Shown: positions 14,886 through 51,519 of the stretch, in pieces
Layout of the letters: each line of letters opens with the position of its first letter
How positions within the stretch are numbered: the first letter of the stretch is position 1
Virus record (IMG/VR): IMGVR_UViG_3300028840_003749
Coordinates: 1 to 64,000 of that record
DNA from: a virus
Direction: 5' to 3' (one strand)
Length of the DNA: 64,000 nt
Notes under the pieces: model-generated
Told to the model about the DNA's origin: nothing
The model's input: the letters and a program-made list of their open reading frames with translations, nothing else
Database searches by the model: none
Made by a program: the position numbers and the translations under genes

Positions 14886-15335
14886 CTACACCGTTCCCCA
14901 CACGGTCGTCGGCGTGCCGACCGATGTAAACTCGAAGGTCAGAGCGTCGTCAAAGTAGTTTCTACTTACGTCGTCGTACGCTCCCGGATTGATGTTCTTC
15001 AGCATCGTGTATGGATACCGCCGTGCTACATTGGTGCTTACCTCCGAATAGCAAACAATCAAAGAGCTTTTGCCCGCGAAGAACAGTCCGTAGTAGCTAT
15101 CGATGGCTCCAAGCAGGTTGACCGGAGCCAACGATGCCTTCCACACCTTCAACGTTACCCGCCAGACGATGTTCGGAGAGTTGCGCGTCACAAGAGGAAA
15201 CGGAGCCCACAGCAACGGCTCCTCTGTGCTCGTTAAGCTCTCCGGATACGATCTCAAGGACAGAACTCTATCGCCGAGCCACTGCTCCTTGTACCACGCA
15301 TACAGATCGCCTTCATAAGAATCAGGCTCTGTCAT
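14886..15335 (-). CDS. Distal tail protein candidate
   Basis: 149-aa ORF immediately downstream of the tape measure (synteny only). Confidence 0.45.
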   Translation of the reverse strand: MTEPDSYEGDLYAWYKEQWLGDRVLSLRSYPESLTSTEEPLLWAPFPLVTRNSPNIVWRVTLKVWKASLAPVNLLGAIDSYYGLFFAGKSSLIVCYSEVSTNVARRYPYTMLKNINPGAYDDVSRNYFDDALTFEFTSVGTPTTVWGTV

Positions 15336-28712: not shown

Positions 28713-29141
28713 TCACTTTCTCCTTCTGCGCCGTCGAATACCCCTTCTGTGCCGTATCCTCTTCTTTATTTCCGACAAGCTGTCGTACTTCCTCGCTGTA
28801 GTACTCACCTTCCTCATCCGCATGTAGCGCTCAGCAACGGCCTCCCCCTTCTCAGTTTCCGACTGAGTTGGAGCCTTGTAGTTCTTGTAACCGTAGACTC
28901 TATTTCCTGCAACTCCTTTCCAACCTTCCCCTCTTGCCTTCTTGAACATCGCCTTCCGAACGTCCTTACTCCAAGGACTCTTTTTCACAACACGCTTCTT
29001 CTTGGAGTCCCATACTCCTGTGAACTTGCCCGCCTTAGCTCTCAAATGAGCGTCTTTCATGGAACCTTTGAACCGACCCTTTTGAGCCGCTGCTGCTTTT
29101 GCGAAGATAGCAGCAAGTTGCCTCCTGCTCAACCGAGCCAT
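28713..29141 (-). CDS. Leader-tagged small basic protein
   Basis: Leader MARLSRRQLAAIFAKAAAAQKG. Contains ETEKGEAVAERYMRMRK and ends in RRRRRRK. Confidence 0.65.
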   Translation of the reverse strand: MARLSRRQLAAIFAKAAAAQKGRFKGSMKDAHLRAKAGKFTGVWDSKKKRVVKKSPWSKDVRKAMFKKARGEGWKGVAGNRVYGYKNYKAPTQSETEKGEAVAERYMRMRKVSTTARKYDSLSEIKKRIRHRRGIRRRRRRK

Positions 29142-30070
29142 TATGCGGCCTCCTTCCAGAGCTTCGCAATGTCTCCGACATCTCGACCTTCCCTCGTCAG
29201 GAACGTCTCATCCACACCTTTCCTGGCTTCAATCTCATCGTCGGTGTAGAACCGAGCGATGAACGGAGACGCCGTGTGCTTGCACCACGGATGAAATGGA
29301 GGACCACCGTTCGGCAACCTCTCCACCAGCGGAAACCCTGGCGTTGCTCCGGTCAGGCTGAACACCTTTCCTCGATACGCATCACAGAAGTCACCGACCG
29401 TGCTCGGATTCGGAGAAATCACGATGAGGTCATGGTTGTTCTGCCCCGCTCGTATCTTCGTCGCTACCGTGGTCGCTTCGCGCCTCATGTTGTGGCCGAC
29501 CATGCCAGCGTAGTAGTCAAGGTCGAATTGGTACATCCGACCATCATCGCCTTTGACAATAACCTTCCCCATCGCCAGCTTGTCCACCAGCCTGTCGATG
29601 ATGCGGTCCTGAAGCTTCGCTGCACTGAGGCCTTGTATCTCGGCTTTGGCGATCTCTGCTCCCATCTCCTCGGTCCAGAACTTCGGCCTGAGCATGAGCC
29701 TGGACACGTGGTGCCTGAAACCATCGGTCGCTCCGGTCAGGTAATCCTGTGCTCGCTTCACCAGATGCTCGACCGCCAACTCGTTGACCTTCTCGAAACG
29801 AGCGTTGACCAGCAGCTTGCCCTTCTTCAGCATCCGGATACTTGCGAAGTCCTGCGTCCTATACCAGTCCGGAATTGCCTTCTCTGCCCACCACCTGCTG
29901 TATCCGTCAGTCCTGCGAAGGATTTTCCGGATATCCACCAAGAGTCCGCGCGCTCGCTCTCGCCGTGCTACTGCAGGCAGATGGCGTGCCTGACTCAAGA
30001 GCGCACGCGCGGACTCTCGATAGTACTGTGCGAGCATCGCTTCCCAGTCTGCTGTACGTACGGCCATCAC
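29141..30070 (-). CDS. Head morphogenesis protein (SPP1 gp7 / Mu F-like minor capsid protein)
   Basis: C-terminal DFCDAYRGKVFSLTG...LPNGGPPFHPWCKHTASPF matches the MuF/gp7 signature (C..C..GKvfsl...PPlHPnCRCt). Confidence 0.8.
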   Translation of the reverse strand: MMAVRTADWEAMLAQYYRESARALLSQARHLPAVARRERARGLLVDIRKILRRTDGYSRWWAEKAIPDWYRTQDFASIRMLKKGKLLVNARFEKVNELAVEHLVKRAQDYLTGATDGFRHHVSRLMLRPKFWTEEMGAEIAKAEIQGLSAAKLQDRIIDRLVDKLAMGKVIVKGDDGRMYQFDLDYYAGMVGHNMRREATTVATKIRAGQNNHDLIVISPNPSTVGDFCDAYRGKVFSLTGATPGFPLVERLPNGGPPFHPWCKHTASPFIARFYTDDEIEARKGVDETFLTREGRDVGDIAKLWKEAA

Positions 30071-31052: not shown

Positions 31053-32006
31053 TCACTCAAAATAACCGAGCGTCGTGAGCACTCTTTGCTGGTGGACGCG
31101 TTCCTCATGCTTCCTGTACGACGTCTTGTCGAACACCGAACTTCCTTCGCACTCCCCCCTCACGCCGAACAAGTCCAGCACGGTCGGCGTCAGGTCCATC
31201 ACCTCCGGCTCCGTCACTTCAGCAGTTGCTCCGCTCAGACCGAGGCAACTCAGATTGTTGTGCGACACCCCGTCCGGCATTCCATGGTCGCCGAACACCA
31301 GCATTACATCAGGCTGCAACTCCACGCGGAGCTTCAGAGCGATTTCACGGACGAGGTCATAGTAGTGATACCACGTATCCTGCTTTTGAGCAGCATGCCC
31401 TAACCGGTCCAGGAACGAAAACTGGATGTACTCCAGGTCCGCTCTCTCCAACCCGAGGAAAAAGTCAATCATCATGCTGGAGCTACGCCGGACCATGTTG
31501 AACCGTACTTCCGGAGGCAGATGCTTGACGTTCTCGAACCCCATCGGATCTGGCCAAGGATCGACATCGCCGTACCAGTAAATCATGTCGGCCACTCGCA
31601 TCCACTGCCTTCTCGACTCGTAGCCATCCTCCATCAGGCCTTCTGGATAGAACCACGGCTTCTTCTCGATGATTGGAAACCCACATACGTGCGCGCCGTT
31701 CACCGGTCGTGCTGGCCACGTAATCGGCACGTTGACGAGCTTCACCGTGTAACCGGCATCTCCAAGCCAGTCCCACATGTACGCAGACTCCGTCGTCTCG
31801 TAGGTCTTCTCGCCTTCCACGTTCCTGCCGAAATTCTCCTCAACGCCGTGCTTCTCCATCGTGTCACCGGTGTTCAGCGACGTCCACGCCGGTCCGGATA
31901 TCGGCACCGGGGAATGCAACGGCGACGTCTGAAATCCAGGAAGGATGAAGCCTTTCTTCACGATCCGGTAATCCAAAGCATCAAACCCTGCGAGGAGCAC
32001 TCTCAC
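31053..32006 (-). CDS. Alkaline-phosphatase-superfamily enzyme (type I phosphodiesterase / nucleotide pyrophosphatase-like)
   Basis: VLLAGFDALD; nucleophile region SPVPISGPAWTSLNTGDTMEKHGV; FLDRLGHAAQ; VFGDHGM. A GTG start at 32006 overlaps the upstream TGA (GTGA). The maximal ORF reaches 32171. Confidence 0.65.
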   Translation of the reverse strand: MRVLLAGFDALDYRIVKKGFILPGFQTSPLHSPVPISGPAWTSLNTGDTMEKHGVEENFGRNVEGEKTYETTESAYMWDWLGDAGYTVKLVNVPITWPARPVNGAHVCGFPIIEKKPWFYPEGLMEDGYESRRQWMRVADMIYWYGDVDPWPDPMGFENVKHLPPEVRFNMVRRSSSMMIDFFLGLERADLEYIQFSFLDRLGHAAQKQDTWYHYYDLVREIALKLRVELQPDVMLVFGDHGMPDGVSHNNLSCLGLSGATAEVTEPEVMDLTPTVLDLFGVRGECEGSSVFDKTSYRKHEERVHQQRVLTTLGYFE

Positions 32007-32269
32007 AATGTCTTCCTTCGCCTCTTTCGCTTCTTGACAGCTCGGCGCTTCGGACCGTGGTACGTACCGGACTTCTCCTTCAGGAAACGCGTCAGCCCAC
32101 CAGGAGAGTAAATTCCTGGCTTGCCTCTCAAATGACCTTCCACGTTCCTGAATTTCCTTCCGGCTGCCCACCGAATGACGCCAACCAATTTGCGCTGCTT
32201 GCCTCTCAAACCAAATCCACGCTTGGCGGCTCGAGCAACTCTGGCCTTCTCTCCTTTCGGCACTGGCAT
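32003..32269 (-). CDS. Small very basic protein (untagged)
   Basis: 88 aa, ends in KRRAVKKRKRRRKTL. The start abuts the stop of the upstream gene. Confidence 0.5.
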   Translation of the reverse strand: MPVPKGEKARVARAAKRGFGLRGKQRKLVGVIRWAAGRKFRNVEGHLRGKPGIYSPGGLTRFLKEKSGTYHGPKRRAVKKRKRRRKTL

Positions 32270-33811: not shown

Positions 33812-34327
33812 TTACCCCCTTACCAGTCTCGGAGTTCCCAACCATTCGCCGAGTAGCGTCACCGCTTCGTGGCACACACGACGGCCGCCAGAGTACGCAT
33901 ACGACTCGCTCAGCGGTCCGATACCTTCCGATTTGCTGACGACACCCTGCTGCCGCAGTTCCCAGTGCCTTTGCCGTCCTCCGATCCTAAGCAGGTACAA
34001 GGCCTGCTCACATGTTGCATCCTGGACGGCTTTCTCCATCCTCACGTATTCATAACCCGTCAGCGTGCTCACGAGCGATGCGACTGCCTGATCACCTTCG
34101 AGCTGGACCGGCAGCTTGAGTCGCTGAGCAGGATAATATCTTGTCCCTCTGAAGCGCAGTGTGTCGATATCACGAGTAGCTTGAAGAAGAGCACGCTCCT
34201 GCATGTCTACTGACGCCTCCGACCATGCTACCACATCCAGCACGGTCGTCATGTAGCTGTTGGCGCTGGACAGGGAGATGTAGCTGTTAGCCGTAGGACC
34301 GCCAAAACTGGAATCAATTGTCGGCAT
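33812..34327 (-). CDS. Head-tail connector protein (gp6 / SPP1 gp15-like)
   Basis: ANSYISLSSANSYM...WSEASVDMQERALLQATRDIDTLRFRG...QRLKLP fits the connector-family pattern (sY.s..ea..Y...W......AL..AT..id...f.G). Confidence 0.6.
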   Translation of the reverse strand: MPTIDSSFGGPTANSYISLSSANSYMTTVLDVVAWSEASVDMQERALLQATRDIDTLRFRGTRYYPAQRLKLPVQLEGDQAVASLVSTLTGYEYVRMEKAVQDATCEQALYLLRIGGRQRHWELRQQGVVSKSEGIGPLSESYAYSGGRRVCHEAVTLLGEWLGTPRLVRG

Positions 34328-34336
34328 ACTGCCTCC

Positions 34337-34702
34337 TTACGAGAACGCTCTCGTTATCCTGTCCCTCACCTCAATCGTACCGGCAGGTGTCGGTACGATG
34401 TAAATCTTGGTGTTACTTAGCTGGACACGAAAGTCGAACGAATAAATCCCTGCGTCCATGCTCTCCGTGTCCGACGGCACAAGGTACGCCTCCACCAAAC
34501 CTCCGAGAGGACTGGTGATAACACACTGAACAGCGACGGAGGAGATTTTGGTAATGAGGGCATCATCATCAGAATCGTGGACCGACTTCTTCACCATGAA
34601 CCTAACCAGAGCCTCAGTAAGGTTGATGGCAACACTGCTCGTGTCCGTCACCAATGCCCTGATGGTCTTGTCCGTACCTTTGACAACCAGAACGTCAGTC
34701 AC
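34337..34702 (-). CDS. Hypothetical beta-rich virion protein
   Basis: 121 aa. VVKGTDKTIRALVTD...INLTEALVRFMVKK resembles Ig-like/BppU-type N-terminal folds (weak). Confidence 0.5.
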   Translation of the reverse strand: MTDVLVVKGTDKTIRALVTDTSSVAINLTEALVRFMVKKSVHDSDDDALITKISSVAVQCVITSPLGGLVEAYLVPSDTESMDAGIYSFDFRVQLSNTKIYIVPTPAGTIEVRDRITRAFS

Positions 34703-34703
34703 C

Positions 34704-37700
34704 TTAATCCACCTCGTCTATGTGCAGAATCAGGTCCACGTCCGCTGCCAGCGGCATTCCACTGACCCCGTCTCTCTCGTCCACGGTGAGTATCAGCGTA
34801 TCGACCATATCGACCTGTGGCCGATAACTTGTGTACGCCGCACTCACATACACCCCCACCTCCTCCACTCCGCTCTCAGCTACGAAGGAGGTATCAATCG
34901 CTACTGCAAGCACTCCAACCGCAACAACACGGTTCTCCAGGTACTCTGCCCCCATCCTGCTCCAGCTACGGACATCAATGCCGACTTCCTCAACAGCTCC
35001 GTCCGTACCATACTGGAGCGACCAGACAACGACCTGGACTCCGACCTCCTCTACGATGCTCCCCGCCATCGCCTGCTGGTCAGACGTGGCAACGTACGCT
35101 CCAGCCTCTTCTGTCGCACTGGAGGACATATACTGAGTGTCGGAGGTGAGTACCTGTACTCCGACTTCCTCGACGCGAGCTTCCAGCACACCGCTGAAGT
35201 CCCACGCCGCTACGTATACTCCGACTTCCTCGACACCAGCATCCGTCGTCGCGTAGCTGCTGGTCAGCGTTACCTCAACGCCCACCTCTTCCGTCGCGCT
35301 GTCGGTCGATGCCTGCGTGTCCGTCGTACTGACGGCAACGCCAACTTCCTCTGTCCGGTTCTCCACCGCGACTTCGGTGTACGCATCGGAGGCAGCAACG
35401 TAGACGCCAACTTCCTCTGTTCCTGCTGCTGTCCCGGCCTGCTGGTCGCTTGCTGCAACGTAGACTCCGACTTCCTCTGTGACCGCTTCGGACCGGTATG
35501 CCGTGTCCGCAACCAGTACAGCAACGCCGACCTCTTCAGTCCGGTCCTCCGTGAGAACGAAGCTCGCGGCCCCTACTACAGCAACACCGACCTCTTCCGC
35601 TACGTCCTGCGTCATCCATGCCGTGCTCGCTGCGATGACCTGGACGCCGACGTACTCGAAGAGGTCTTCCGAGTTAGTCCCTACCAGCGTGTCCACCGTG
35701 AATACGTAGACACCGACCTCTTCCGTCGCTGCTGCTGTTCCTGCCTGAACCGATGTCACGAGGACCGCGACACCGACCTCCTCTGTCGCCTCATCCACCC
35801 CTGCTACCGTGTCGCTCGTGAGGACCGCGACACCAACTTCCTCAGTCACGGCCTCCGGCGCCACAACAGTATCGGAGACTATGACCGCTACCCCCACCTC
35901 CTCGACCACATCCTCAGCGCCGGTCGCCACCAGAGAATCGGAGACGATGATATCGACACCGACTTCCTCGACTACATCCTCCTCAAATGCACCGGCTCCA
36001 GCAGTGAACTGGTCGGAGCACTCTACGTAGACCCCTACCTCCTCCACCACCTCATCGGCAGGAGTGTAGACGGTCGCTATGGCCTGGACGCCGACCTCTT
36101 CGGCAACCTCCTCGTGAATCCACTTGAACGACAGCGAGTAGTTGTCCAGGTGCAGCGAGCCTGCCCACCCATTGACGGTACCCTGAATACGGCTCTCACC
36201 TTCGGAGTAGGTCGCATCCTCCGTAGCCAGCACCAACTCGTCATCCCAGTACAGTTGCAGTCCGGAGCCTATCGTCTTGAACTCCGCATACTTGCTGTTA
36301 CTCCGGTCGGTGCCATCACTGGCGAGCGTGGTGCCACCCCTGTAGATTTTACACTCAGTCATGTATGCTGAACCGGACGTGCCCCGATACAGGTAGTAGT
36401 ATGCGTAATACCCACTCGCCGTCACCTGATGACGATTGTGAATGCGGACGTACTGGCGACGGATGCCTGTCGGGCCTTGGTGCGAAGCCCAGATTCTCTG
36501 CGAGTAATCCGTGTCCAGTCCGTGACCATCTACAACGTGCTCTCTTACCTTTATCACACCATTTTCGGTTGTAGACCCGGCAATGATTTTCAGGCGGTTG
36601 TCGTCAATCTCGAAGTCCGTGGCTCCGGTTCCGTCGGGGTCTTCTTCCCACGTGTGCAGGCCGTCGCTCATGCTTCCTACCGCACCGCTATCTCCACGGT
36701 CGAAGTCGTCCGTGCAGACGTTTGCATGAGGAGGCCAGCCGAACCCGTGCGTGTGAACTCCAACTTCCTCTGTGACATCCTCAGCGAGCGCTCTCCACGC
36801 CTCAGCAAGCTCCGCAACACCAACCTCTTCCGTGACCGCATCGGAAGCGTAGAGCGTTGAGGCCGCAAGTATCTCTACCCCCGCCTCCTCTACGACCGGC
36901 TCCAGCGCGAGGTCGAGGACGACATCATCAACGAATATCGTCTCGCTCTCCGTGACGTAAACCCCCACCTCCTCTACACGGTCCTCTTCCATCGCTCCAC
37001 CGGCTTCGGTGAAGCTATCGGAGCAGGCCGTGTAGACACCGACCTCTACGAGGAGCGTAGGTTCGGGGTCACTCGCGGCGACTTCGACTCCAACCTCTAC
37101 GGCTACGTTCTCGGAGTATGGTCCATGCTCTGCGACGGAGACCTCGACGCCGACTTCCATCTCTATCGGTTCGAGAAGCTCGTCCAGGTAGTAGTTGTCG
37201 GCCTTGCTACTACCGGAGAACGTCCCATTCTTACCTCCAATGCCGGTGCATCCCTCAGAGTAGGTGGCATCAGTGGTCTGCGTCATCAACTCACCGTCCC
37301 AGAATGCTTGGAGCTTAGTGCCCCACACCCGGAACTCACAGTTCTTATTGCAATCCCTATTAGAGCCGTCATTGGAGAGTGTGGTTCCACCCCGCTTTAT
37401 GGCGATGTCGGTGAGGTATGGATCGCCAGTACTGCGGTCCTGCCGAACCTCGACATGGTATCCTACCGGCGTGTCAGTATTTCCATCGCCCTGGTCACGA
37501 GCGATGATTCTGTTCCGATTGGTCTTGTAAGCAGTTCCGCTGTGGTAGCAGACACACCCCTGCCTGTAGCTTCTGTCCAGTCCGTGTCCATTTGCTACGT
37601 GTTCGTGAATGCGGACTGTGCCGTATACCGTAATGCTTGCAGAGTAGCCAAAGATAATCCGAGAGCCGTCAACAGACACATAGCTCCCGTGGTAGACCTC

Positions 37701-39443
37701 ATCCCACGAGTGGAGACCATCGCTCATCGTTCCCGGTTCTCCACTACGGTTGAAGTCGTCACTGGCCTGATTCCAGTGCGGAGGCCAGCCGTAGGCAGGA
37801 GTGTCAACCCCAACGGAGATGAGCGCTGTAGGCTCAGGGTCTGAAGCGAGAGCCTGGACACCAACTTCTACGTAGAGACGCTCCGGAGTCATCTGGTCAG
37901 TGCAGGAAACTTCGACACCGACCTCCGAGACTTGCGGCTCCAGCACCCCATCCAAGAAGTAGGAAGCAAGCGTCATTCGGCGCGTGTTCCAACCCTTGTC
38001 GAGAGCTACTCCTGTCTGGCCTTCCGTGTGTGTAGCATCCGTGGTGTCAAGGAGAACCTCTCCGTTGTAGAGCGCGGTGAGGCTTGTGCCTCTTACCCTG
38101 AACTCCAGCTTGTCGGAGCCAGTGGTGACTGTGACACCAGGAGATGAAACAGAATCCAACTCCGTAGTGCCACGGTAAATATACACATTGATTAGAGCGA
38201 ATCCGGCGCCCTTCTGATACGCAAAACGAGCAGTGTAGCCAACATCAGGAAGGCTGTTCTGTGTGCGATTTCCGTCCCACCTGGACATGAAGTCGAAGCG
38301 GCTCGTATCGGAGGGGTCGTAGGCAGGAGTGCCGAGAATGCCTCCGTGCCGGTAGTCTACATCAAGCCCGTGTCCTGCCGACTGGTGCTCGTGAATCCTA
38401 ACCGTACCTGTTGCCCAGTAGCTTGCTGTCTGCACGGCTTCCAAAGTGTTGCTGTAAATGTTTATCCTATTGGCGTCACACACCTCGTCCCAGGTGTGCA
38501 ATCCATCACTGGCCGTTCCTACAGTACTGCTGTCCTCGCGGTCAAAGGAGTCGATGACTTCGTTCCAGTGCTTCGGCCAGCCGAATCCCGGCTCCTCGAC
38601 ACCGACTTCCACTACAACATCGTCTGAGAAAGCCTTCCACGCTGCTGCCACAGCCTGGACACCGACCTCTACTACAACGTCATCCTCGTATGTCTCACCG
38701 GCACCCGTATCATCGGTCTCTCCGATGTAGACGCCGACCTCTTCCGTGACATCCTCACTCCACACAGAAGTCAGCGAATCGGAGACGATGATAGCAGCGC
38801 CAACCTCCTCCGTGACGCTGTTCGACATGAACTGCGTGTCGGACGTAGCCTCGTAAGACCCTACCTCTTCGGTCCTGTTCTCGAACGATGCCTGCGTATC
38901 GGAGACGACCTCTTCCGAGCCGACCTCCTCAACGACATCATCCTCATACGTCTGCGCCCCTGCCTCATAGTACACGGTGATGGTCGCATGGTCCACAAAG
39001 CGCGTGTAGCTCGCGCCGCTCTGTGTTCCAGGCCGCAGACGGCAACCGAAGCTGCTATTGCCCTTGATGTCACTGAGGTTCCAGGTGGTGTTCCAGAGGG
39101 AGTCGGCAGCGCCGAAGTCAATGAGAGGAGTGTCAGAAGTGTCAAGGTCGGCTGTAGCGGACTCGTCACCCGCCTGAGTGGAACCGTCCTTGGTAAGTCC
39201 TACGGCAAGGTCACGGCGAGCAGCATTGTTTCCTTCGCCGTATCCTTCGATGCTAACCACGATGCCAGTGATGACGGAGCCGTCCGGGATGCCGGAGAAG
39301 TCATAGCCTGTGGCAGCCATGATGTCCGTATTGTTGTCCGCTTCGGCGTAGTTATCACCGGAGGAGTAGACATACGACGGATTCGTCCACGTCCCCGCGA
39401 TTACCGCTGAAGCGGTCGGACTTTGTGGTCCTTCGCTCGCCAT
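34704..39443 (-). CDS. Giant repeat protein: ~37 EEVGV modules interleaved with 3 paralogous ~200-250-aa beta-sandwich (lectin-like) domains
   Basis: 1579-aa uninterrupted ORF. Recurring x[TV]EEVGV[YAQ]V modules. Repeated domain motifs GFGWP.H.N..DDFDR...SDGLHTW.E, VRIHEH..GHGLD..Y and DATYSEG. Confidence 0.8.
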   Translation of the reverse strand: MASEGPQSPTASAVIAGTWTNPSYVYSSGDNYAEADNNTDIMAATGYDFSGIPDGSVITGIVVSIEGYGEGNNAARRDLAVGLTKDGSTQAGDESATADLDTSDTPLIDFGAADSLWNTTWNLSDIKGNSSFGCRLRPGTQSGASYTRFVDHATITVYYEAGAQTYEDDVVEEVGSEEVVSDTQASFENRTEEVGSYEATSDTQFMSNSVTEEVGAAIIVSDSLTSVWSEDVTEEVGVYIGETDDTGAGETYEDDVVVEVGVQAVAAAWKAFSDDVVVEVGVEEPGFGWPKHWNEVIDSFDREDSSTVGTASDGLHTWDEVCDANRINIYSNTLEAVQTASYWATGTVRIHEHQSAGHGLDVDYRHGGILGTPAYDPSDTSRFDFMSRWDGNRTQNSLPDVGYTARFAYQKGAGFALINVYIYRGTTELDSVSSPGVTVTTGSDKLEFRVRGTSLTALYNGEVLLDTTDATHTEGQTGVALDKGWNTRRMTLASYFLDGVLEPQVSEVGVEVSCTDQMTPERLYVEVGVQALASDPEPTALISVGVDTPAYGWPPHWNQASDDFNRSGEPGTMSDGLHSWDEVYHGSYVSVDGSRIIFGYSASITVYGTVRIHEHVANGHGLDRSYRQGCVCYHSGTAYKTNRNRIIARDQGDGNTDTPVGYHVEVRQDRSTGDPYLTDIAIKRGGTTLSNDGSNRDCNKNCEFRVWGTKLQAFWDGELMTQTTDATYSEGCTGIGGKNGTFSGSSKADNYYLDELLEPIEMEVGVEVSVAEHGPYSENVAVEVGVEVAASDPEPTLLVEVGVYTACSDSFTEAGGAMEEDRVEEVGVYVTESETIFVDDVVLDLALEPVVEEAGVEILAASTLYASDAVTEEVGVAELAEAWRALAEDVTEEVGVHTHGFGWPPHANVCTDDFDRGDSGAVGSMSDGLHTWEEDPDGTGATDFEIDDNRLKIIAGSTTENGVIKVREHVVDGHGLDTDYSQRIWASHQGPTGIRRQYVRIHNRHQVTASGYYAYYYLYRGTSGSAYMTECKIYRGGTTLASDGTDRSNSKYAEFKTIGSGLQLYWDDELVLATEDATYSEGESRIQGTVNGWAGSLHLDNYSLSFKWIHEEVAEEVGVQAIATVYTPADEVVEEVGVYVECSDQFTAGAGAFEEDVVEEVGVDIIVSDSLVATGAEDVVEEVGVAVIVSDTVVAPEAVTEEVGVAVLTSDTVAGVDEATEEVGVAVLVTSVQAGTAAATEEVGVYVFTVDTLVGTNSEDLFEYVGVQVIAASTAWMTQDVAEEVGVAVVGAASFVLTEDRTEEVGVAVLVADTAYRSEAVTEEVGVYVAASDQQAGTAAGTEEVGVYVAASDAYTEVAVENRTEEVGVAVSTTDTQASTDSATEEVGVEVTLTSSYATTDAGVEEVGVYVAAWDFSGVLEARVEEVGVQVLTSDTQYMSSSATEEAGAYVATSDQQAMAGSIVEEVGVQVVVWSLQYGTDGAVEEVGIDVRSWSRMGAEYLENRVVAVGVLAVAIDTSFVAESGVEEVGVYVSAAYTSYRPQVDMVDTLILTVDERDGVSGMPLAADVDLILHIDEVD

Positions 39444-40822
39444 TAGAAGGCTACCTTCACCTGAGCGTATCCGTCACATGAGAACGTGCCGCTGAAAGCA
39501 TCCCACATCGTCACGTTATGCCACGTGTCCGCTTCGCAGTTTGCTTCCGTGGTTCCTGTCTTGTACTGCACACTGCTCGGAGCAATGCCGTGTCCGTACT
39601 TGTTGAGCCTCACTCGCGCCGTTCCTGCCCCGAGGTCCACCACAGGAGACGTTGCATATTCTCCGCTGCTCAGAGCGATTGACTCTCCATCTCCAGAGCC
39701 GACGATGGAAGCCGTTCCACTCCAAGTCGAAAGGTCGGCAGTATTCTCCTCCAGCACGCTCGTATCGTGACCCCAAGCCACGGAGCCTGCCAATGAGTCG
39801 TGCAGGTCGTGGTACTTGGTGACGCCAGAGATTGAGCGCCCCGATGTGCCCGAGTTGTAGCTAATCGGGGCGAGATGGTATCTATAGCTGCGGTCGGTGC
39901 CCAACGTAATGCTGGCAGTATTCAGTAGATTCGTGAAGCGCGGGTCTGTCTCGCTATAGAGTTTCCATGTAATAGTCGTGCCGTTCTTGTCGATTTTGTG
40001 GTCATAGGTTGTGCCGAAACCACCCGCGCCAACAGTATACGAATCGCTGTCGGCTCCCTCTTCTTCTCGGATACGCATGTACGCATTGCTCTCTGCCGCA
40101 GACTGCCAGTTGAGATGGATACACTGGCTGTTGTTCGTGTCCCAATAATAAACGTCCTCGACAACATTGGACACAGCGTACAGCGAACCAGAACTGAGGT
40201 AATCGTAGTTGTCTATCTGGGTGCGGAGGTCATGTGCAGCCGCCCCCGTAAAGTCGGTGAAGTGCCCGACGCCGAAGTCTCGGTGGAAGTAGTCATCAAC
40301 GGTTTGCCCCATGCTTGTGATGGTAATCGTGTCGGTAGAGGCGGAGAGGTCGTCTCCCCCGTCCACCTTGGTGTAGTCGTTCTCGAAATCTTGATAGGGG
40401 TCAGGAGCGCTCGTCAGGTCGGAAGTACCCGCGATGACATCGTTACTGTCGAGCGCTGATAGCGCCTGCGCATCCAGAGACGCCAAGACCTCGGGCTTGT
40501 GAATCCGATACCATGTTTCTTCAATCTCGGCATCGGGCTTTATTATCGGGAGTCTCCTCCGCACGGCGGCAAGCATCTGCCCGACAACCTCAAGCTGCGG
40601 ATTCCAGCGGGTCAGTTGCTCCGCGCGAAACTCGGCCAGCAAGAGCTTCTTGTCGATGACCATCTGGCCCCGGACGTTGTGTTCAAGCCGTAGCTTCTCC
40701 AGCAGGCCGACTAAGGCCCGCGCCTTGTCCATGTCGGAGAGAGAGTCATAGCTGGTGCCGAGGCCGAGGGCCACAGTCAGCGCGTCGGTGTCAACGGTGA
40801 TGTTGGACCTATCAACCGCCAT
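39443..40822 (-). CDS. Hypothetical structural protein (coiled-coil N-terminus + beta-rich domains)
   Basis: 459-aa ORF whose stop is coupled to the start of the giant gene. Confidence 0.6.
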   Translation of the reverse strand: MAVDRSNITVDTDALTVALGLGTSYDSLSDMDKARALVGLLEKLRLEHNVRGQMVIDKKLLLAEFRAEQLTRWNPQLEVVGQMLAAVRRRLPIIKPDAEIEETWYRIHKPEVLASLDAQALSALDSNDVIAGTSDLTSAPDPYQDFENDYTKVDGGDDLSASTDTITITSMGQTVDDYFHRDFGVGHFTDFTGAAAHDLRTQIDNYDYLSSGSLYAVSNVVEDVYYWDTNNSQCIHLNWQSAAESNAYMRIREEEGADSDSYTVGAGGFGTTYDHKIDKNGTTITWKLYSETDPRFTNLLNTASITLGTDRSYRYHLAPISYNSGTSGRSISGVTKYHDLHDSLAGSVAWGHDTSVLEENTADLSTWSGTASIVGSGDGESIALSSGEYATSPVVDLGAGTARVRLNKYGHGIAPSSVQYKTGTTEANCEADTWHNVTMWDAFSGTFSCDGYAQVKVAF

Positions 40823-41410: not shown

Positions 41411-41950
41411 TTATGCGGATTCCCTCAACCTGATGGTCATGGTGACGTTCAGGTAGTCACCGTCCGTCACCGTCCTGGTCGTACTCAGAGCAGCCGAGGC
41501 AATCAACCATCCTGTCCCGTCATCCGACTGCACGGTCGTCAGGAACAGGTTGTCAACTCCAGGCCAGTCACCACCGGAGGCATTGAACGTGCACACCTTG
41601 GTGACCATTTCGTAATCGGAGGTGCCGCCGTCCTGCTGCACGGTCCAATCATCTGCCGCCTTGACATGGAGCCGCAGATAGTTGTTCCCTGTCGGCTCCG
41701 TCGTAACGCTGGTGATAGTGTCGGCCTCAGTCAATGAGGCTCTGTCATCCAGCCCCAGATACAATGTACTCGGCAAGGTCGTATTGCCAGAGAGAATCTG
41801 GCAGAACAACGCCTCACCTTCATCATGCAAGATGTTGTGAACATCTTCCTGATGCAGCAGCTCTCCCGCTCTTGACCAGTGCTCGACATGCCACCGAGTG
41901 TGCAGACCGAGCTGCGTGTGAGCCGGACGAACCACCTTGTCGCCACTCAT
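41411..41950 (-). CDS. Hypothetical beta-rich protein
   Basis: 179-aa ORF with protein-like composition. Confidence 0.55.
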   Translation of the reverse strand: MSGDKVVRPAHTQLGLHTRWHVEHWSRAGELLHQEDVHNILHDEGEALFCQILSGNTTLPSTLYLGLDDRASLTEADTITSVTTEPTGNNYLRLHVKAADDWTVQQDGGTSDYEMVTKVCTFNASGGDWPGVDNLFLTTVQSDDGTGWLIASAALSTTRTVTDGDYLNVTMTIRLRESA

Positions 41951-42838: not shown

Positions 42839-43735
42839 TCAACGACCTTTCTTTCTCCTGGTCGACTTCCATTCGGTCAACCTGCGCTGGAGCAGCTCTA
42901 ATCGGTCCGAAATGGTGTATCCAAACTCTCGAGCCTCTTCCTCTCCCATCTTCTTGTCGGCGGCCAAAGCACAGGATACGTAAGACTCAACAACCTCCGA
43001 AGGAACCAACCCGGCAAGCTTGCGTCGAAACGCAGGACTCATCTGCTCAGGCCTCGTATAGCTGGATATGCTATCGGAGCCTGCTCCGTTGTGGTCGATT
43101 GGAATCCCGACCATCTTACTCTCATCAATAAGGATGTTGAAGCCGTGTCGGTCCGAGTTGCCAATGATGAAGTCGAAGGCCTGGATGTCATTCCAATTCT
43201 TCAACTCCCTCTTGTCTCTGTTAGGAACGGCTGCAATTGGCGGCTCGTCCACCCACTGCATCACGATGCCATCGTCGCCTTGGACGTTCATCGGCTCGAC
43301 CGTAGGCATCGGAAGGCCAAGCTCGGTCCCAAGCTCGTACGCGAACAACTCCATGTCCACGTTCTGACTTACGATGACCACCTCGCGTTGTATATGACCA
43401 CGAGCTTCTGCGGGCTTAAAGACAACCTTGTGGATTTTTTCTCCGTCCGAAAGGTCCACAGTAAATGTCCGAGACACGCCTGAGTTAAGTCGTTCGACCA
43501 AGAGCACATCCATCGAAGCGTAGTCTTTCGGACCGCCTACCTTCTTGTACCCTCTGACCGTGACTCGCGGAAGCTCCTTCGCTCCTTCCTGCTTCAACAG
43601 CGACTGGTGAAGCTCTTCCGCAGATTTCGGAGCTTCCGCTTTCGTTCCCCCAGATTTGCCTCCTCCTGCTCGCTTCTTGTCCTTGTAGACAGTCGCAAAC
43701 AGAAAGGCCAGCTGCTTTCTGGTGAGCTTACTCAC
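42839..43735 (-). CDS. Leader-tagged PI3/PI4-kinase-like (atypical kinase) protein
   Basis: Leader MSKLTRKQLAFLFATVYKDKKRAGGG. Kinase motifs HKVVFKP, IVMQWVD, catalytic loop FDFIIGNSDRHGFNILID and IPIDHNG. Confidence 0.65.
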   Translation of the reverse strand: MSKLTRKQLAFLFATVYKDKKRAGGGKSGGTKAEAPKSAEELHQSLLKQEGAKELPRVTVRGYKKVGGPKDYASMDVLLVERLNSGVSRTFTVDLSDGEKIHKVVFKPAEARGHIQREVVIVSQNVDMELFAYELGTELGLPMPTVEPMNVQGDDGIVMQWVDEPPIAAVPNRDKRELKNWNDIQAFDFIIGNSDRHGFNILIDESKMVGIPIDHNGAGSDSISSYTRPEQMSPAFRRKLAGLVPSEVVESYVSCALAADKKMGEEEAREFGYTISDRLELLQRRLTEWKSTRRKKGR

Positions 43736-43738
43736 ACC

Positions 43739-44611
43739 TCAACGCCTTTGTCTTTTTCGCCGAGAGCCTCTCCGAGATCCCCGCTCCTTCTCGTACTGGC
43801 GGATCTCCTTCTGAAGGAGTGGCAAAGCCTCTCCAACCCATTCTCCGGCTATTGTACTGCTCGTTCCTTCCGCCCACTCAGCAGCGTACTCTATTCGCTT
43901 CACTGTATCATCAACATCCAGCGCCAACACGCGCTTCCTGAATTCCGGAGTCAACCTGTTCACCGAGTACCTTTTGGGAGTCCTCCAGCCACACGAGTTG
44001 TGGTCAATCGGAACCACCATCTTCTGCGACACGTCGACCAGATAGTTGCCATCATGCCGGTCCGTGTTTCCGATGATAAAGTCAAATGCCCTCATGTCGT
44101 CGTAATTCTTCAGGCCAACCAACTCGTCATAGCTGCAATCCTCCGCAGCAGGCAGGTCTACCCACTGCATGGCGATTCCTGGCCTGTCCTTTCCTGACAC
44201 CCTAAGCGCTTTTTCTTCTGTGGCAGGAATCGGAAGACCAAGCTTAGTACCGATTTCGTATGCGAATAACTCCAGGTCCGTATCCTGGCTTATCCCCAAC
44301 TCCGAGTTATCCTTTGGCTTGAACAGCACCTTATGAATACGCTCTCCGTCGGAAAGCCGCGTTACGTAAGTTTCGCTCACACCAGAATTCAAAGACTTGG
44401 CCCGGCCGACCTTCTGCATAGAGCCGTAACCTTTTGATCCTCCGGCATCTTTGTAACTCTTGAACGAAACCTCCTTCAGCTTAGAAGCAGGCCCGGCATC
44501 CGGAGTCGCCGAACCTCGCCGTGCTCTCGCGCCTCTCCTCGACCTTCTTTCGGAGGCCATGCGAGCAAACATGGCAGCCAGCTGCTTCTTACTAAGAGGT
44601 CGCCTACTCAT
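43739..44611 (-). CDS. Leader-tagged PI3/PI4-kinase-like protein (paralog)
   Basis: Leader MSRRPLSKKQLAAMFARMASERRSRRG. Kinase motifs HKVLFKP, IAMQWVD, FDFIIGNTDRHDGNYLVD and VPIDHNS. Confidence 0.65.
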   Translation of the reverse strand: MSRRPLSKKQLAAMFARMASERRSRRGARARRGSATPDAGPASKLKEVSFKSYKDAGGSKGYGSMQKVGRAKSLNSGVSETYVTRLSDGERIHKVLFKPKDNSELGISQDTDLELFAYEIGTKLGLPIPATEEKALRVSGKDRPGIAMQWVDLPAAEDCSYDELVGLKNYDDMRAFDFIIGNTDRHDGNYLVDVSQKMVVPIDHNSCGWRTPKRYSVNRLTPEFRKRVLALDVDDTVKRIEYAAEWAEGTSSTIAGEWVGEALPLLQKEIRQYEKERGSRRGSRRKRQRR

Positions 44612-46171: not shown

Positions 46172-47296
46172 TTAACCACTGTAGGCCTTAGCCATTCCTG
46201 CCTCGTTCCGAACCTCAACGGTGTACTCACCGATGATCATGCCCTTCTCGGAGTCACCGGTCCGGCTGACAGGCACGTACCGGAAAGACCGATTCCTCAG
46301 AGGCAGGACACGAATCCTCTGCGAGCTGGTGATGATGAGACTGTTGGCCCGCATCCAGCGGTTCAAGACGACGGTCTGAAGACCGAAGGTGGACTCGTAC
46401 TCCGTCACACGGTTCTTGAATCGCTCTTCGGCGTTCGTCACCCTCGTCCTGGTGCTGTTCCAGGAGTCGATGGTCCGCTTGAAGTTCTTGTCGCAGATGA
46501 TCAGGTCGACATCCGTGCCGCCGTAATCCCATGCGGCCTGGATCACGTTGGCAAGCCAGGACTCCGTCAGCGTCGGACCGATGGACTGGTTGTTCGTGGT
46601 CACGAAGTCCCACAGTCCTTTCATGGTCCGGTACGCCGTCGCCGAACCGAGTGTGTTGCCACTCAGCTTGCCACGGAGCAGAGCGCGCTCAAGATCCCGC
46701 AATGACTCGCGAGTCTTCTTCGCACGCTGATAATCCATCTCGGAGCCGACGCCTCCAAGCTGCCGCACCGCTTCCATCGTTCCGGACACGATGATGTCCT
46801 TCTTGATGATCTGCGTGTAATTCGACAGCCGGACGCGGGGACGAGACGTATCCTGGTTGACGTCGGCGCCTTCCAGTGCAGCATCGGACACCACGTAGAA
46901 CGAGTATCCAGGAGCATAACTGGTTGCCGCCGTGCCTCCCTGCGCTCTGGCGACGGTGATGTAGTTACCGCTCACGGCGGTAACCTGCAACACCTCAGAG
47001 CCGTCACTGTTCTCAATGTAGGCACCGGTCTGCATGTACGCCGCCAGTCCACCCGCAATTTCGATGGAGCTTGCCGCAGTGGTGCTATGACTCAGAGTCG
47101 AGCTGACCAGGGTGTTCGGAGCCAAGTCATCCTCAAGCCATTCGTGAAGCACGTTCTGCGCTTCGTTCACGGCCTGCGGAAGAGCGTTGAGCAGTGGCGT
47201 CTCGTACGGAGCAATCATCGAGATGATGTCACTCACGTCCTCCGCCACACCGTCGAACACACCCGAGTCGTAGATAGCTCGGCCAGTAAACGCCAT
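46172..47296 (-). CDS. Major capsid protein (HK97 fold, SU10/DUF5309-like)
   Basis: N-terminal VAEDVSDIISMIAPYETPLLNALPQAVNEAQNVLHEWLEDDL matches the DUF5309 signature (..sP.dTP....i.....a.n..hEW.eD.L). 374 aa, follows the scaffold gene. Confidence 0.75.
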   Translation of the reverse strand: MAFTGRAIYDSGVFDGVAEDVSDIISMIAPYETPLLNALPQAVNEAQNVLHEWLEDDLAPNTLVSSTLSHSTTAASSIEIAGGLAAYMQTGAYIENSDGSEVLQVTAVSGNYITVARAQGGTAATSYAPGYSFYVVSDAALEGADVNQDTSRPRVRLSNYTQIIKKDIIVSGTMEAVRQLGGVGSEMDYQRAKKTRESLRDLERALLRGKLSGNTLGSATAYRTMKGLWDFVTTNNQSIGPTLTESWLANVIQAAWDYGGTDVDLIICDKNFKRTIDSWNSTRTRVTNAEERFKNRVTEYESTFGLQTVVLNRWMRANSLIITSSQRIRVLPLRNRSFRYVPVSRTGDSEKGMIIGEYTVEVRNEAGMAKAYSG

Positions 47297-48419: not shown

Positions 48420-49946
48420 CTAACCGCCAAAGCCTCCGCCGAAGCCGAAGCCTGTCTGTGGCGGGACGTCTTCTTCCGTGTCGATTTCGTGCTCGACCTT
48501 CGCTCGGATATCGTCGGGCGACTTCGACAGGAATTTCATCGCTACCTTCTTCTCCATTTCTCGTTTCGCAGTATCGCTACGCATACCCTCCTTGAACTCT
48601 TGCAACAGTGCGAGGTCGTCCAGCAAGTTTTCCACACCGAACTGCTCCGGATAGTCGATCTCTCCGGTGAACTTCTTATCCCTACCATTCGAAGACATCC
48701 ACATGCCAATGAGCCTGTGAACCTTCTTCTCAGCGTCCTCCAGGTCGTTCGCATCGGATGCGAGCATCTGGTTCGTCTCATTGAACTCGTACGACCATGC
48801 GATCCCCGACTGGACCTGACGGACGCGCTCGTAACCAGCCAGACCTCCGAGTCCGGCTATCCTGTAAATCTGGTCAACCGCTCGACCGATGTGCTCCTCA
48901 AGTGCTGCCATCGGCTCTCCCGGCGCCGTGAGGTACGCAGGAGGATGCACCGCCTGCGGATCGTACTCAAGGATGTTGTAATGCGAAAGCTTGATTTCGT
49001 CCGAGTCGCCCCCTGGTTGCCTTGGCATGGTCAAGATGTTCAGACAGCGGTTGTACGCCTCTTCATCGATGAGGCTGGACCATGCCATAATGCCGAGGTT
49101 GATTCTCGCTATGTCTCTGATGTAGCTTAGCCCCCACGGAGCGTTCGTCCTCTTCGACTTGACATGCCGAACCAGGACGACTGGCACTTCGCCAAGTGGA
49201 TTCGGCCCCCTGCCGACCTCCTCCGCACTGCGCGGCTTCATGGCAAACTCGTCCTTCGTCGGCGTTCGGCCAGCGGAAGTCCTAATGCTCTCCCGTCGGA
49301 ATACTACCTTGTGCAGATACCACATGTCGCGCGTCCACGTCCGGTAGTACACCGTCTGGTCAGGACTGCGCTTCTGCATCGCATCCCACTCATCGCCTAA
49401 GTCTTCGACGTACCGAATCCATCGGAGAGAGCCTTTCTCATCGAAGCTCCAGGCTCGCATCGCGACCGGGTCAATTTCGGTCAGGTACGGACGGATGCCT
49501 TGCTGCCGACGCTCCAACTCATTCCGGACCTCGCCTCTCGGCATGTCCACCAAGATCCCCATGTAGCCGAACACTCGCACATAACGGTCAACCGACCACA
49601 TGAACTGGTTGAGGCTGTTGCCGTCTTGGTCGGCATCGTTGTAAATGCCGTCGATGACATCCTGCGGAACTCCGCCTTCCCACTTCGGATCGCGCTTGAT
49701 GTCAGCCCGGTACAGAAAGGCGGACATCATGTCGATGACCATCGCACAGTAATTGTAGTAGTACGACCTGTCTCTCCGTCTGGTATAGCTGACGTTGTCC
49801 TCTCGTTCATGCTTCTTCAAGAACTCCCGGATCGACCGTCCGCCTTCATAGCAAGTCAGGTACATCAACCATGTCTTCGCGTAGTCAGCATGGATGGGAT
49901 GTACTGCTGTTATGATGTCAGACAGATTCTGCGCTGCGGTGACCAT
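48420..49946 (-). CDS. Portal protein
   Basis: 508-aa ORF directly after the large terminase gene. Size and synteny fit; no motif was independently verified. Confidence 0.65.
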   Translation of the reverse strand: MVTAAQNLSDIITAVHPIHADYAKTWLMYLTCYEGGRSIREFLKKHEREDNVSYTRRRDRSYYYNYCAMVIDMMSAFLYRADIKRDPKWEGGVPQDVIDGIYNDADQDGNSLNQFMWSVDRYVRVFGYMGILVDMPRGEVRNELERRQQGIRPYLTEIDPVAMRAWSFDEKGSLRWIRYVEDLGDEWDAMQKRSPDQTVYYRTWTRDMWYLHKVVFRRESIRTSAGRTPTKDEFAMKPRSAEEVGRGPNPLGEVPVVLVRHVKSKRTNAPWGLSYIRDIARINLGIMAWSSLIDEEAYNRCLNILTMPRQPGGDSDEIKLSHYNILEYDPQAVHPPAYLTAPGEPMAALEEHIGRAVDQIYRIAGLGGLAGYERVRQVQSGIAWSYEFNETNQMLASDANDLEDAEKKVHRLIGMWMSSNGRDKKFTGEIDYPEQFGVENLLDDLALLQEFKEGMRSDTAKREMEKKVAMKFLSKSPDDIRAKVEHEIDTEEDVPPQTGFGFGGGFGG

Positions 49947-49971: not shown

Positions 49972-51519
49972 CTAAGCATTCACGAAGCTCGCCTTGGACA
50001 TTCGCACCTTGCCGGTCAGCCCCTTCTTCCAGCTTCTCAGCATGTACCGTGCAGCATCCATAGCATGGTCGTTCAGCTTCAGCGGCGGTTTCTCCTTGGA
50101 AGGTTTCCCTTCGTCCGTCTCCTGCCACCTGTACGACTTGAACTCACGGATCGTGTTCCTCAAGTGCCGCATCACGATTAGACCCGGCTTTTTCGTCATC
50201 GGATTGACTCTGAGGAACTCCTTGACATCATTAATGCCGTTCAGCACGTCCTTATCAGCGGCGAACGTCGGAATCCGCTGCGCTGACAACTCTGCTCTGT
50301 CCTGTCTATCCCAATCAGCCCACATCAACTCGCCGGATTGGTAATCGCTCGATGCCTTGATGGTCTCCGCGTGGTCCTTGATGAGCTTGAGCTGTTCCTC
50401 ATAATACTCGTAGTAAAACACAATGGTGCCATCCGGAGCAACCGCCCCCTTCAGGCACACAAACGGATGGCCAGGACTTGCACCGAAGTCGATAGCTCCA
50501 AGCCGCTGCCAGTTTTTCGGAATGACGTGCTTCTTGATCGGATCGAACGGATAGGCCTTGTACAGCTGATCCCAGTCCCATACGTTCTCGTTCTCGTTGA
50601 ACTCCTCACCGTACACCAACAGCACGTCGGACGGCTTCGTACAATTCCACTCGCTCTCCCACGCATCATCACTGAGAACGACGGCCTTGTTAATGAAGTC
50701 GTCAATGGCATAGTAGCCTTCCGACTTGTGCGCGTCTCCCTGGCACCGCTCGTACGCAGGACAGTCTCCGTACCGAGGATCGCCTTTGCACTTCCGCGTG
50801 CACTTCCTGACCATCTCCCTCCAGCACCACGGATATACGGCAATGCCAAGGTCTTCCGCTTCGTCCAGGAGCCGCTGCATCGTACCGACACCGAACTTCC
50901 TGGTGCTGGTGAACACGTCCTGAGCCTTCACTTCTCCCCGGCTCACGGTCATGCTCAATCCGGTTTGCAGCGTCGTCCAATCGATTAGCTCGACCTCATC
51001 AATCCTTGACTTCTGAGGATGCGGTGACGACAGACCTTTCACCGTACCAGTCAGAATCTCAAGGCTGCTCCCTCCGGACGACTGCGTTGCTCCAAGCGTG
51101 CATTTCGGAAAGTACTTCTGGAACCGCCGCATGAAGACGAAGCTGCGAACGTACTGGTAGCACCTGTTCGCCTGAGCCAGCGTAGCTCCAGCATGCGTTG
51201 TCTCACACCCCTCCTTGAACAGCATGTCGCAGAAGTTGACGATGGCAAGATTGAGCGTCTTGCCCCCCGTCCGGTTTGCAAATCCGATGGCCTTGCTTAC
51301 TCTCTCAAAGTACAAGTCGCTCACGAACTGGAACGGAGCCACATGTCCGGAGCACACGGCCTTCTTCGGCACCGTGAATCCCAGGCAGTGCCGGATGAAC
51401 TCGTCAAGCTCAAAGTCGTCCTTCGGCGGATGCTTGATGTACCACTCGGCGTATCTGTCCGCCAGCTGGTCCCTCAACTCCGCCTTCGTCCATCTTCGTT
51501 TGCGAGAAGCAATGGTCAC
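49972..51519 (-). CDS. terL: Terminase large subunit
   Basis: ATPase P-loop-like FANRTGGKTLNLAIVNF. C-terminal nuclease-like region IDFGASPGHPF ... DHAMDAARY. 515 aa. Confidence 0.75.
   Translation of the reverse strand: MTIASRKRRWTKAELRDQLADRYAEWYIKHPPKDDFELDEFIRHCLGFTVPKKAVCSGHVAPFQFVSDLYFERVSKAIGFANRTGGKTLNLAIVNFCDMLFKEGCETTHAGATLAQANRCYQYVRSFVFMRRFQKYFPKCTLGATQSSGGSSLEILTGTVKGLSSPHPQKSRIDEVELIDWTTLQTGLSMTVSRGEVKAQDVFTSTRKFGVGTMQRLLDEAEDLGIAVYPWCWREMVRKCTRKCKGDPRYGDCPAYERCQGDAHKSEGYYAIDDFINKAVVLSDDAWESEWNCTKPSDVLLVYGEEFNENENVWDWDQLYKAYPFDPIKKHVIPKNWQRLGAIDFGASPGHPFVCLKGAVAPDGTIVFYYEYYEEQLKLIKDHAETIKASSDYQSGELMWADWDRQDRAELSAQRIPTFAADKDVLNGINDVKEFLRVNPMTKKPGLIVMRHLRNTIREFKSYRWQETDEGKPSKEKPPLKLNDHAMDAARYMLRSWKKGLTGKVRMSKASFVNA

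Follow-up and report, generated by a model that had tools for sequence, protein, structure and literature searches.

We analysed a 64,000-nucleotide (nt) stretch of the virus record IMGVR_UViG_3300028840_003749 (positions 1 to 64,000, the whole of which is called the window below), in which one giant gene, at 34704..39443 on the (-) strand, encodes a protein of 1579 amino acids (aa). Our preferred reading, to which we give a probability of roughly 0.55, is that this giant protein is a late-expressed virion surface adhesin or fibre of an uncultivated tailed phage, in which three diverged glycan-binding modules would be carried by an acidic beta-repeat scaffold. The open reading frame (ORF) is a genuine gene of the late structural operon. 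It is organised as follows, from the N- to the C-terminus, with domains named after concanavalin (ConA):

34704..39443, (-) strand: coding sequence of the giant protein, complete, 1579 aa, ATG start, stop codon at 34704-34706
38949..39443, (-) strand: N-terminal domain, aa 1-165, starting WTNPSYVYSSGDNYAEAD; orphan, candidate virion-docking part
38598..38948, (-) strand: repeat block 1, aa 166-282, six EEVGV-type units, the sixth continuing straight into domain A
37929..38597, (-) strand: ConA-like (CBM66/DUF1080-related) domain A, aa 283-505, from paralogue alignment and profile search
37818..37928, (-) strand: repeat block 2, aa 506-542, three units (SEVGV, VEVGV, ISVGV), from the core-pattern count
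37149..37817, (-) strand: ConA-like domain B, aa 543-765, from paralogue alignment and profile search
36762..37148, (-) strand: repeat block 3, aa 766-894, seven units, from the core-pattern count
36114..36761, (-) strand: ConA-like domain C, the modelled copy, aa 895-1110, from paralogue alignment, AlphaFold2 and Foldseek
34809..36113, (-) strand: C-terminal array, aa 1111-1545, 21 uninterrupted units, from the core-pattern count
34707..34808, (-) strand: acidic C-terminal tail, aa 1546-1579, RPQVDMVDTLILTVDERDGVSGMPLAADVDLILHIDEVD, with two VDxLIL-type mini-motifs

The repeat was defined by its EEVGV core, of which the giant protein carries 21 exact copies. By chance such copies are hardly expected, since in 2000 shuffles of the protein EEVGV occurred 0.019 times on average and never more than once, and the composition of the protein predicts 0.024. 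A relaxed core pattern, allowing one or two substitutions, returned 39 sites, two of which (aa 159 and 1288) were false. The EEVGV-type units thus number 37 and are distributed in four blocks (6+3+7+21), with six units at aa 168-293, three at 502-560, seven at 758-907 and 21 at 1111-1545. An earlier reading of this DNA made from its letters alone (the sequence-only reading) had proposed about 37 units with 21 of them in the C-terminal array, and we recovered both counts exactly. Spacing between units is mostly 20 aa across the giant protein (range 17-28); in the C-terminal array it ranges from 19 to 25 aa and is exactly 20 aa in 15 of the 20 spacings. Accordingly, identity autocorrelation of this array peaked at a lag of 20 (0.36), then at 40 and 62.

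The aligned units gave the consensus (E/D)-x-V-(V/T)-E-E-V-G-V-(Y/A/E/Q)-V-phi-phi-S-D-T-x-x-x-x. Conservation is highest within the core: Gly8 is present in 37/37 units, Val7 in 35/37, Glu6 in 34/37 and Val9 in 32/37. Because hydropathy differs between the two faces, with a mean of +2.78 for positions 3, 7, 9, 11 and 13 and of -0.25 for the alternate positions 4-14, each unit reads as one amphipathic beta-strand of about 11 residues with a Val face, followed by a polar, S/T/D-rich linker of about seven residues. The composition of the C-terminal array is similarly biased, with 22% Val, 14% Ala, 13% Glu and 19% Asp + Glu (D+E), and neither Lys nor His. Over the whole giant protein (isoelectric point (pI) about 4.05) D+E amounts to 17.5% and Lys + Arg (K+R) to 4.7%, while the repeat blocks show 19-27% and less than 2%, respectively. 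The window proteome as a whole is not acidic, its D+E (12.8%) being nearly matched by K+R (12.0%). For this reason acidity is a trait of the giant protein and not the mark of a halophilic host, and a halophile origin, which had been suggested by the acidity together with a match of the neighbouring gene g179 to a Halorubrum virus, was rejected.

At the DNA level the units are far less alike, with a mean nucleotide identity of 49%, and their invariant core uses both codons for Glu and all four for Val and for Gly; Tandem Repeats Finder detected almost nothing in the array DNA. Since synonymous codons vary freely at this level of nucleotide identity, the array is old and kept by selection at the peptide level, rather than being a recent slippage product. 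Length polymorphism through replication slippage is therefore not expected. The sequence-only reading had suggested looking for array length variants, and the databases hold one sequence only: the giant protein is found, identical, on three to five metagenome contigs, the longest of 94.7 kb (ENA ERZ27256783), its 90%-identity cluster consists of a single member sequence and no variant of array length is on record. We also observed a 607-aa open frame on the (+) strand, at 34548-36371, antisense to the repeat array. It was rejected as a gene and is attributed to a shadow ORF arising from the periodic GC-rich codons of the array.

Relatives of the repeat were searched for at the protein and DNA levels. 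The EEVGV array had no match in Pfam, even at E <= 10, none in PHROGs or NCBIfam, and none among PDB sequences (phmmer, E <= 10), in agreement with the sequence-only reading, which had not recognised the repeat. The unit is absent from all 135 distant relatives of the globular domain. For the giant protein as a whole, tblastn against 50,697 phage records returned nothing besides itself, scans of IMG/VR, JGI metagenomes and GTDB genomes found no other carrier, and it was its own sole return in a collection of 5.8 billion protein clusters. This last result is informative for the repeat because proteins with many repeat words in common would rank first. We then used a degenerate DNA pattern of two EEVGV cores 20 aa apart, which matched 10 times in the window (0 expected) and gave no match in IMG/VR. 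Forty-two pattern loci from metagenome and genome collections, once read in frame, were rejected as chance pairs or simple repeats of 5-10 aa such as (EEVGV)n. Among these collections, two loci of the Bathyarchaeota metagenome-assembled genome CAWIYF01 (L037, 7493-7836, and L043, 2503-2756) contain long repeats with a 30-nt period, which read (GIGVGEEVGV)n in one frame. They were likewise rejected as relatives of the 20-aa unit and are unrelated simple repeats. In the literature EEVGV was met solely as a single copy within the alpha-tubulin tail. In the public data searched, the EEVGV-type repeat is thus an orphan, new and so far unique.

The repeat fold was then addressed by AlphaFold2, with a model of eight units (aa 1279-1440) whose alignment consisted of the other repeat blocks placed in phase. 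The model, of low confidence with a predicted local distance difference test score (pLDDT) of 53.5, is an antiparallel meander with one strand of 12-17 residues per unit, and the repeat region is predicted to be all-beta. Foldseek with this model returned nothing at E <= 0.001; the non-significant list was led by FapC, CsgA and other beta-solenoids, with probabilities of at most 0.06 and TM-scores of at most 0.22. A beta-solenoid or beta-helix, as raised in the sequence-only reading, is unsupported by this single low-confidence model, in which each unit forms one long strand. With a single hydrophobic strand per 20 residues, the repeat would fit poorly to a two-sheet solenoid, and better to sheets burying their Val faces against one another or between chains.

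The three domains interleaved with the repeat blocks are paralogues. Domains A, B and C (about 220 aa each) align over their full length with 36-45% pairwise identity and about 50 invariant columns. All motifs that had been listed for them are present in each copy: GWP.H.N, D.F.R, SDGLH.W.E, EH..GHGLD..Y, EF...G..L and TDAT..EG. A profile of the three copies, used in an exhaustive HMMER search, identified 136 proteins at E <= 0.001, 15 of them at E <= 1e-10. Many of these relatives are multi-domain proteins, some with PEP-CTERM tails, and the closest ones, of about 400 aa, have in common the subfamily signature D.F.R.DS..G..SDG.H.W.E followed by EH..GHGLD..Y. The family PF06439 (3keto-disac_hyd, formerly DUF1080), which we take to be a member of the concanavalin-like clan, was matched by 9/30 full-length relatives and 6/20 excised domain segments, and PF23918 (DUF7257) was weakly matched by two excised segments. 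A profile built from the three window domains and 17 relatives (A3) matched CBM66 (4AZZ, 4B1L and 4B1M) with E = 1.6e-8 to 2.7e-8 over about 100 of 205 positions, compared to E = 0.05 for the profile of the three window copies alone, and it reached only E = 0.72 with a neurexin LamG domain.

Structure prediction pointed in the same direction. The AlphaFold2 model of domain C is all-beta, with 15 strands and a low confidence (pLDDT 52.9). Among the 50 best PDB entries returned by Foldseek for this low-confidence model, all those with a probability of at least 0.9 were ConA-like folds (TM-scores 0.3-0.52), and six entries of lower probability were ryanodine-receptor chains. The neighbours comprised CBM66, L-type lectins (Emp46p/47p), galectin, GH16 glucanases and PL7 lyases, along with the receptor-binding domain (RBD) of gp23 from mycobacteriophage TM4. 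The nearest predicted viral structures were tail-fibre, minor-tail, receptor-binding and 'ConA-like lectin' proteins, mostly of actinobacteriophages. Similarly, the PHROG families matched by the domain relatives are annotated as virion structural protein, tail protein and minor tail protein, with tail matches at E 1.7e-5 to 0.02, for which the window domains themselves gave no direct sequence match. Thus the beta-sandwich of LamG or concanavalin type, which had been only an impression in the sequence-only reading, gained support from profile and family matches and, with a low-confidence model, from fold comparisons, and the assignment of domains A-C to the concanavalin-like lectin/glucanase superfamily, in its CBM66/PF06439 branch, is supported. 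It stands at the superfamily level and is transitive, not a family membership, because the window copies miss the Pfam thresholds and their relatives match. We infer that domains A-C bind carbohydrate. A scan of IMG/VR with the domain alignment (A4) gave no confirmed loci; three loci with small lectin-domain relatives (L002-L004) have phage-like contexts that are unrelated to the window, and a 2075-aa neighbour protein in L002 is without EEVGV-type repeats.

The junctions between repeats and domains follow a common scheme. Every lectin domain starts directly after a VGV core, at EVGVEEPGFGWP, SVGVDTPAYGWP and EEVGVHTHGFGWP. The closing residues are 'L(D)..LEP' in domains A and B and 'LSFKWIH' in domain C, and each time a new core comes next. 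Each domain thus takes the place of the second half of a unit, as though inserted between two consecutive strands of an unbroken scaffold. The two termini of a ConA/LamG-type sandwich are adjacent, so that such insertion would be possible without breaking the shaft. As the sequence-only reading had noted, a distinct domain occupies the N-terminus: aa 1-165 have no paralogue within the giant protein, and no relatives were found in Pfam, NCBIfam or protein database searches. A candidate match of this domain to 9hz8_M, a capsid linker protein of phage 7-7-1, was rejected on alignment (domain i-Evalue 2.4).

Essentially all credible genes of the window are on the (-) strand. The genes relevant to the position of the giant ORF are the following, in the direction of transcription:

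49972-51519, (-) strand: large terminase, upstream
48420-49946, (-) strand: portal, upstream, with a probable scaffold gene between it and the major capsid protein (MCP) gene
46172..47296, (-) strand: SU10-type MCP (PF17236, 2e-78), head end of the interval
43739-44611 and 42839-43735, (-) strand: two kinase-like paralogues of 290 and 298 aa (PF00454 PI3_PI4_kinase 9.5e-7; weak HipA_2 and Fam20C; phrog_3162)
41411..41950, (-) strand: g179, 179 aa, PF23140, the family of podophage GP4 fibre I protein gp80 (34.5 bits, cutoff 27)
39443..40822, (-) strand: 459-aa orphan gene, pI 4.6, immediately upstream, its TAA stop overlapping the ATG of the giant ORF (TAATG)
34337..34702, (-) strand: 121-aa gene (phrog_1084), its GTG start adjoining the stop of the giant ORF
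33812..34327, (-) strand: head-tail adaptor Ad1 (phrog_477 1.3e-16, PF20557), neck end of the interval
31053-32171, (-) strand: type I phosphodiesterase/nucleotide pyrophosphatase family protein (PF01663 4.6e-7), among neck-region genes
29141-30070, (-) strand: SPP1 gp7-like minor capsid protein (phrog_4611 9.3e-18), 26% identical to the Lietuvens minor capsid protein
20560-23670, (-) strand: 1036-aa glycosyltransferase-methyltransferase-glycosyltransferase fusion (phrog_2170, phrog_4752 and phrog_13126 at 5e-25), downstream of the neck genes
15335-18391: tape-measure-like ORF, weak match, about 16 kb from the giant gene
9362-11014, (-) strand: radical SAM protein (phrog_1802 8.9e-31), further downstream

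The giant ORF is translationally coupled within the late operon. An AAGG motif stands 11-12 nt upstream of its start, and promoter-like or terminator-like sites between 32 and 48.5 kb were not above shuffled expectation. Owing to the TAATG overlap, the 459-aa protein, which had no Pfam, PHROG, NCBIfam or PDB match, is likely a partner or assembly factor of the giant protein. The giant ORF lies two genes upstream of Ad1, and g179 lies three genes upstream of the giant ORF. In the phage records, tblastn matched g179 only to a hypothetical protein from Halorubrum tailed virus 25, an archaeal virus (33% identity, 5e-5). Together, 14 genes fill the interval of about 11.8 kb between MCP and adaptor. 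In comparison, Lietuvens, a Sporosarcina myovirus and the closest MCP relative (29% identity) with an annotated genome, has five small genes between MCP and tail sheath; the interval of the window is a lineage-specific accessory cassette. The adjacent kinase-like paralogues occupy an unusual site for such genes in a late structural operon, and their products may be packaged or modify virion proteins; modification of virion proteins or DNA is also possible for the 1036-aa fusion. The SPP1 gp7-like gene stands downstream of the neck genes and not beside the portal, so that the structural module is rearranged with respect to distant relatives. No sheath or tube was found among the downstream genes by PHROG and Pfam scans or by comparison with Lietuvens, the weak tape-measure match being the sole signal.

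These results led us to a working scheme for the giant protein. Its orphan N-terminal domain would dock it onto the capsid or the neck, and the coupled 459-aa protein might take part in this. An extended beta-strand scaffold would be built from the 37 acidic EEVGV units, with a Val face formed by positions 3, 7, 9, 11 and 13 and an invariant Gly8. Into this scaffold the three CBM66/DUF1080-type modules would be spliced after a VGV core and leave it via LEP or a similar linker; as they are placed between units they would protrude as side knobs. Multivalent and reversible binding of host or environmental glycans by these knobs would then provide the first step of adsorption.

Several observations weigh against such a surface adhesin. 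Neither the whole protein nor its N-terminal domain nor the repeat has any relative of known virion location, and domains A, B and C had no match to PF06439 even at E <= 10 and reached no Pfam threshold. Both AlphaFold2 models are of low confidence (pLDDT 53 and 53.5). The protein lacks the C-terminal receptor-binding knob or chaperone domain of classical fibres and ends in repeats and an acidic tail. Moreover, the cassette is not purely structural, with kinase-like genes inside, the scans of downstream genes did not fix the tail type of the phage, and the extreme acidity, with almost no Lys/Arg, would also fit an internal or ejected protein.

Two placements of the protein on the virion appear roughly equally likely. 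It is quite possible, if on the unlikely side, that it forms a head fibre or capsid decoration protein of the Hoc or 7-7-1/phiCbK kind, with its N-terminal domain anchored on capsomers or vertices and its lectin knobs making first contact. The gene is indeed located between MCP and head-tail adaptor and translationally coupled in that operon, it is not beside the weak tape-measure-like ORF (15335-18391), and the product has no C-terminal knob as is typical of tail fibres. However, the 11.8-kb interval is a lineage-specific cassette, absent from Lietuvens, and since it holds both kinase-like genes and a homologue of a tail-fibre family (PF23140), gene position does not discriminate head from tail. 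The sole hint of a capsid link, 9hz8_M, was not significant, the N-terminal domain has no homology to known decoration proteins or fibre anchors, and the viral proteins of closest fold are mostly tail proteins. Hence the sequence-only reading was right in placing the gene between head and connector genes (from the MCP at 46172-47296 to Ad1 at 33812-34327), but its preference for a head fibre or decoration protein over a tail fibre was not established, given the mixed content of the interval and the tail proteins among the closest viral folds. The other placement, possible and somewhat doubtful, is a side fibre attached to the neck or tail, as in podophage GP4, whose fibres sit on a ring that encircles the head-to-tail adaptor and are encoded downstream of the capsid gene. 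GP4 fibres hang from a 15-copy fibre adaptor ring on the head-to-tail adaptor (PMC11445570), and the GP4 fibre genes come after the MCP gene and before other tail genes. In the window, g179 is a member of the family of GP4 fibre I protein gp80 (PF23140; 34.5 bits, cutoff 27), the giant gene is two genes upstream of Ad1, and the viral neighbours of the lectin fold are tail fibres and minor tail proteins. Conversely, no window protein has pairwise similarity to GP4 and none is a recognisable fibre-adaptor homologue, and here again the N-terminal domain is an orphan without homology to known fibre anchors. A relationship to GP4 was itself rejected, as only g179 matches, at the Pfam level alone, and no gene shows pairwise similarity. 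With respect to a tail fibre proper, the giant gene stands outside the tail/baseplate module: it precedes the adaptor and is some 16 kb away from the weak tape-measure-like ORF.

Other functions were considered for the same protein. If domains A-C were enzymes, ConA-like hydrolases or lyases of glucanase type, the giant protein would be a multi-headed depolymerase. The name of PF06439 (3-keto-disaccharide hydrolase), the PL7 alginate lyases and GH16 glucanases among the Foldseek matches, and the EH..GHGLD..Y motif, invariant in the three copies and also present in the two closest relatives, are compatible with this. We nevertheless consider it unlikely, as among solved structures only the non-catalytic CBM66 gave a significant sequence match and no GH16/PL7 catalytic signature was seen, with no test aimed at one; the confidence of the domain model is too low for inspection of a cleft. 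An internal, ejected or non-virion acidic protein, for instance a polyanionic scaffold, a DNA mimic or a secreted matrix binder, seems very improbable. A pI of about 4, 19% D+E and no Lys in the C-terminal array, in a window proteome that as a whole is not acidic, would agree with it, as would the probable non-structural enzymes of the cassette. On the other hand, lectin-type domains as found in phage receptor-binding proteins make little sense inside a capsid, and the Val-rich amphipathic strand pattern favours a folded beta structure over a disordered polyanion. Finally, we entertain, as a somewhat doubtful possibility, a bolder reading in which the EEVGV unit would represent a fibrous beta architecture not described before. 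Its polyanionic strands, with their Val faces, would form an array that may be oligomeric or stabilised by cations; with lectins spliced in between strands, it would make a beads-on-shaft head or neck fibre of a new phage lineage of about 95 kb, maybe modified after translation by the kinase-like and glycosyltransferase enzymes of the same late region.

Phage fibres with carbohydrate-binding modules set host range and first contact, and new shafts are useful for engineering. An orphan repeat and three diverged lectin modules on one chain suggest that glycans are recognised in a multivalent or multi-specific way. Should the repeat turn out to be a new fibrous fold, the few architectures of viral fibres would gain one more; otherwise the giant protein would be a clean example of lectin domains inserted in a repeat scaffold. 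In either case it has no bearing on a long-standing open question.

Compared with known systems, domains A-C are closest to CBM66/PF06439, through the profile match, the PF06439 matches of their relatives, the all-beta model and the presence of CBM66 in the Foldseek list. They differ by a signature of their own, GWP.H.N..D.F.R.DS..G..SDGLH.W.E followed by EH..GHGLD..Y. Also, CBM66, the C-terminal module of Bacillus subtilis levanase SacC, is borne by a glycoside hydrolase, whereas the window domains are set within the repeat scaffold of a phage protein. The best viral structural neighbours are ConA-like RBDs of actinobacteriophages (the C-terminal RBD of TM4 gp23, PDB 9N6A; Gordonia DUF7257; the Rhodococcus ReqiPepy6 tail fibre), with a likeness at the fold level only (TM-score 0.4-0.58 with a low-confidence model, 10-19% identity). 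In those phages one terminal domain is encoded in the tail module, in contrast to three internal copies in the head-neck interval.

The scaffold may be compared with the beta-repeat shafts of other viral fibres. Adenovirus and reovirus fibres are built as a triple beta-spiral from a 15-residue repeat with conserved Gly/Pro, and T4 gp5 and gp12 contain a triple-stranded beta-helix. In common with them the EEVGV repeat has short periodic units of alternating hydrophobicity, an invariant Gly, many tandem copies, a setting among viral structural genes and associated globular binding domains. It differs by its period of 20 residues and its strong acidity, its V-G-V spacing misfits the beta-spiral consensus, and no sequence match or significant fold match links it to these shafts. 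The functional amyloids curli CsgA and FapC and the cell-wall-binding choline-binding/CROP repeats (20-23 residues, beta-arch or hairpin) have a comparable period, but their signatures, Q/N/G-rich or aromatic, are unrelated to that of the EEVGV repeat, which is E/V-rich with one hydrophobic strand per unit. Head fibres and decoration adhesins (phi29 gp8.5, T4 Hoc, T5 pb10, 7-7-1 and phiCbK) resemble the giant protein by a gene near the capsid gene, and those of 7-7-1 were proposed to make a reversible first contact with the host surface (PMC12796354). They consist of Ig-like domains, helical supercoils or unidentified proteins and have no homology to the giant protein. A phage fibre with carbohydrate-binding modules is thus of a well-known kind, and it is the scaffold repeat that is new.

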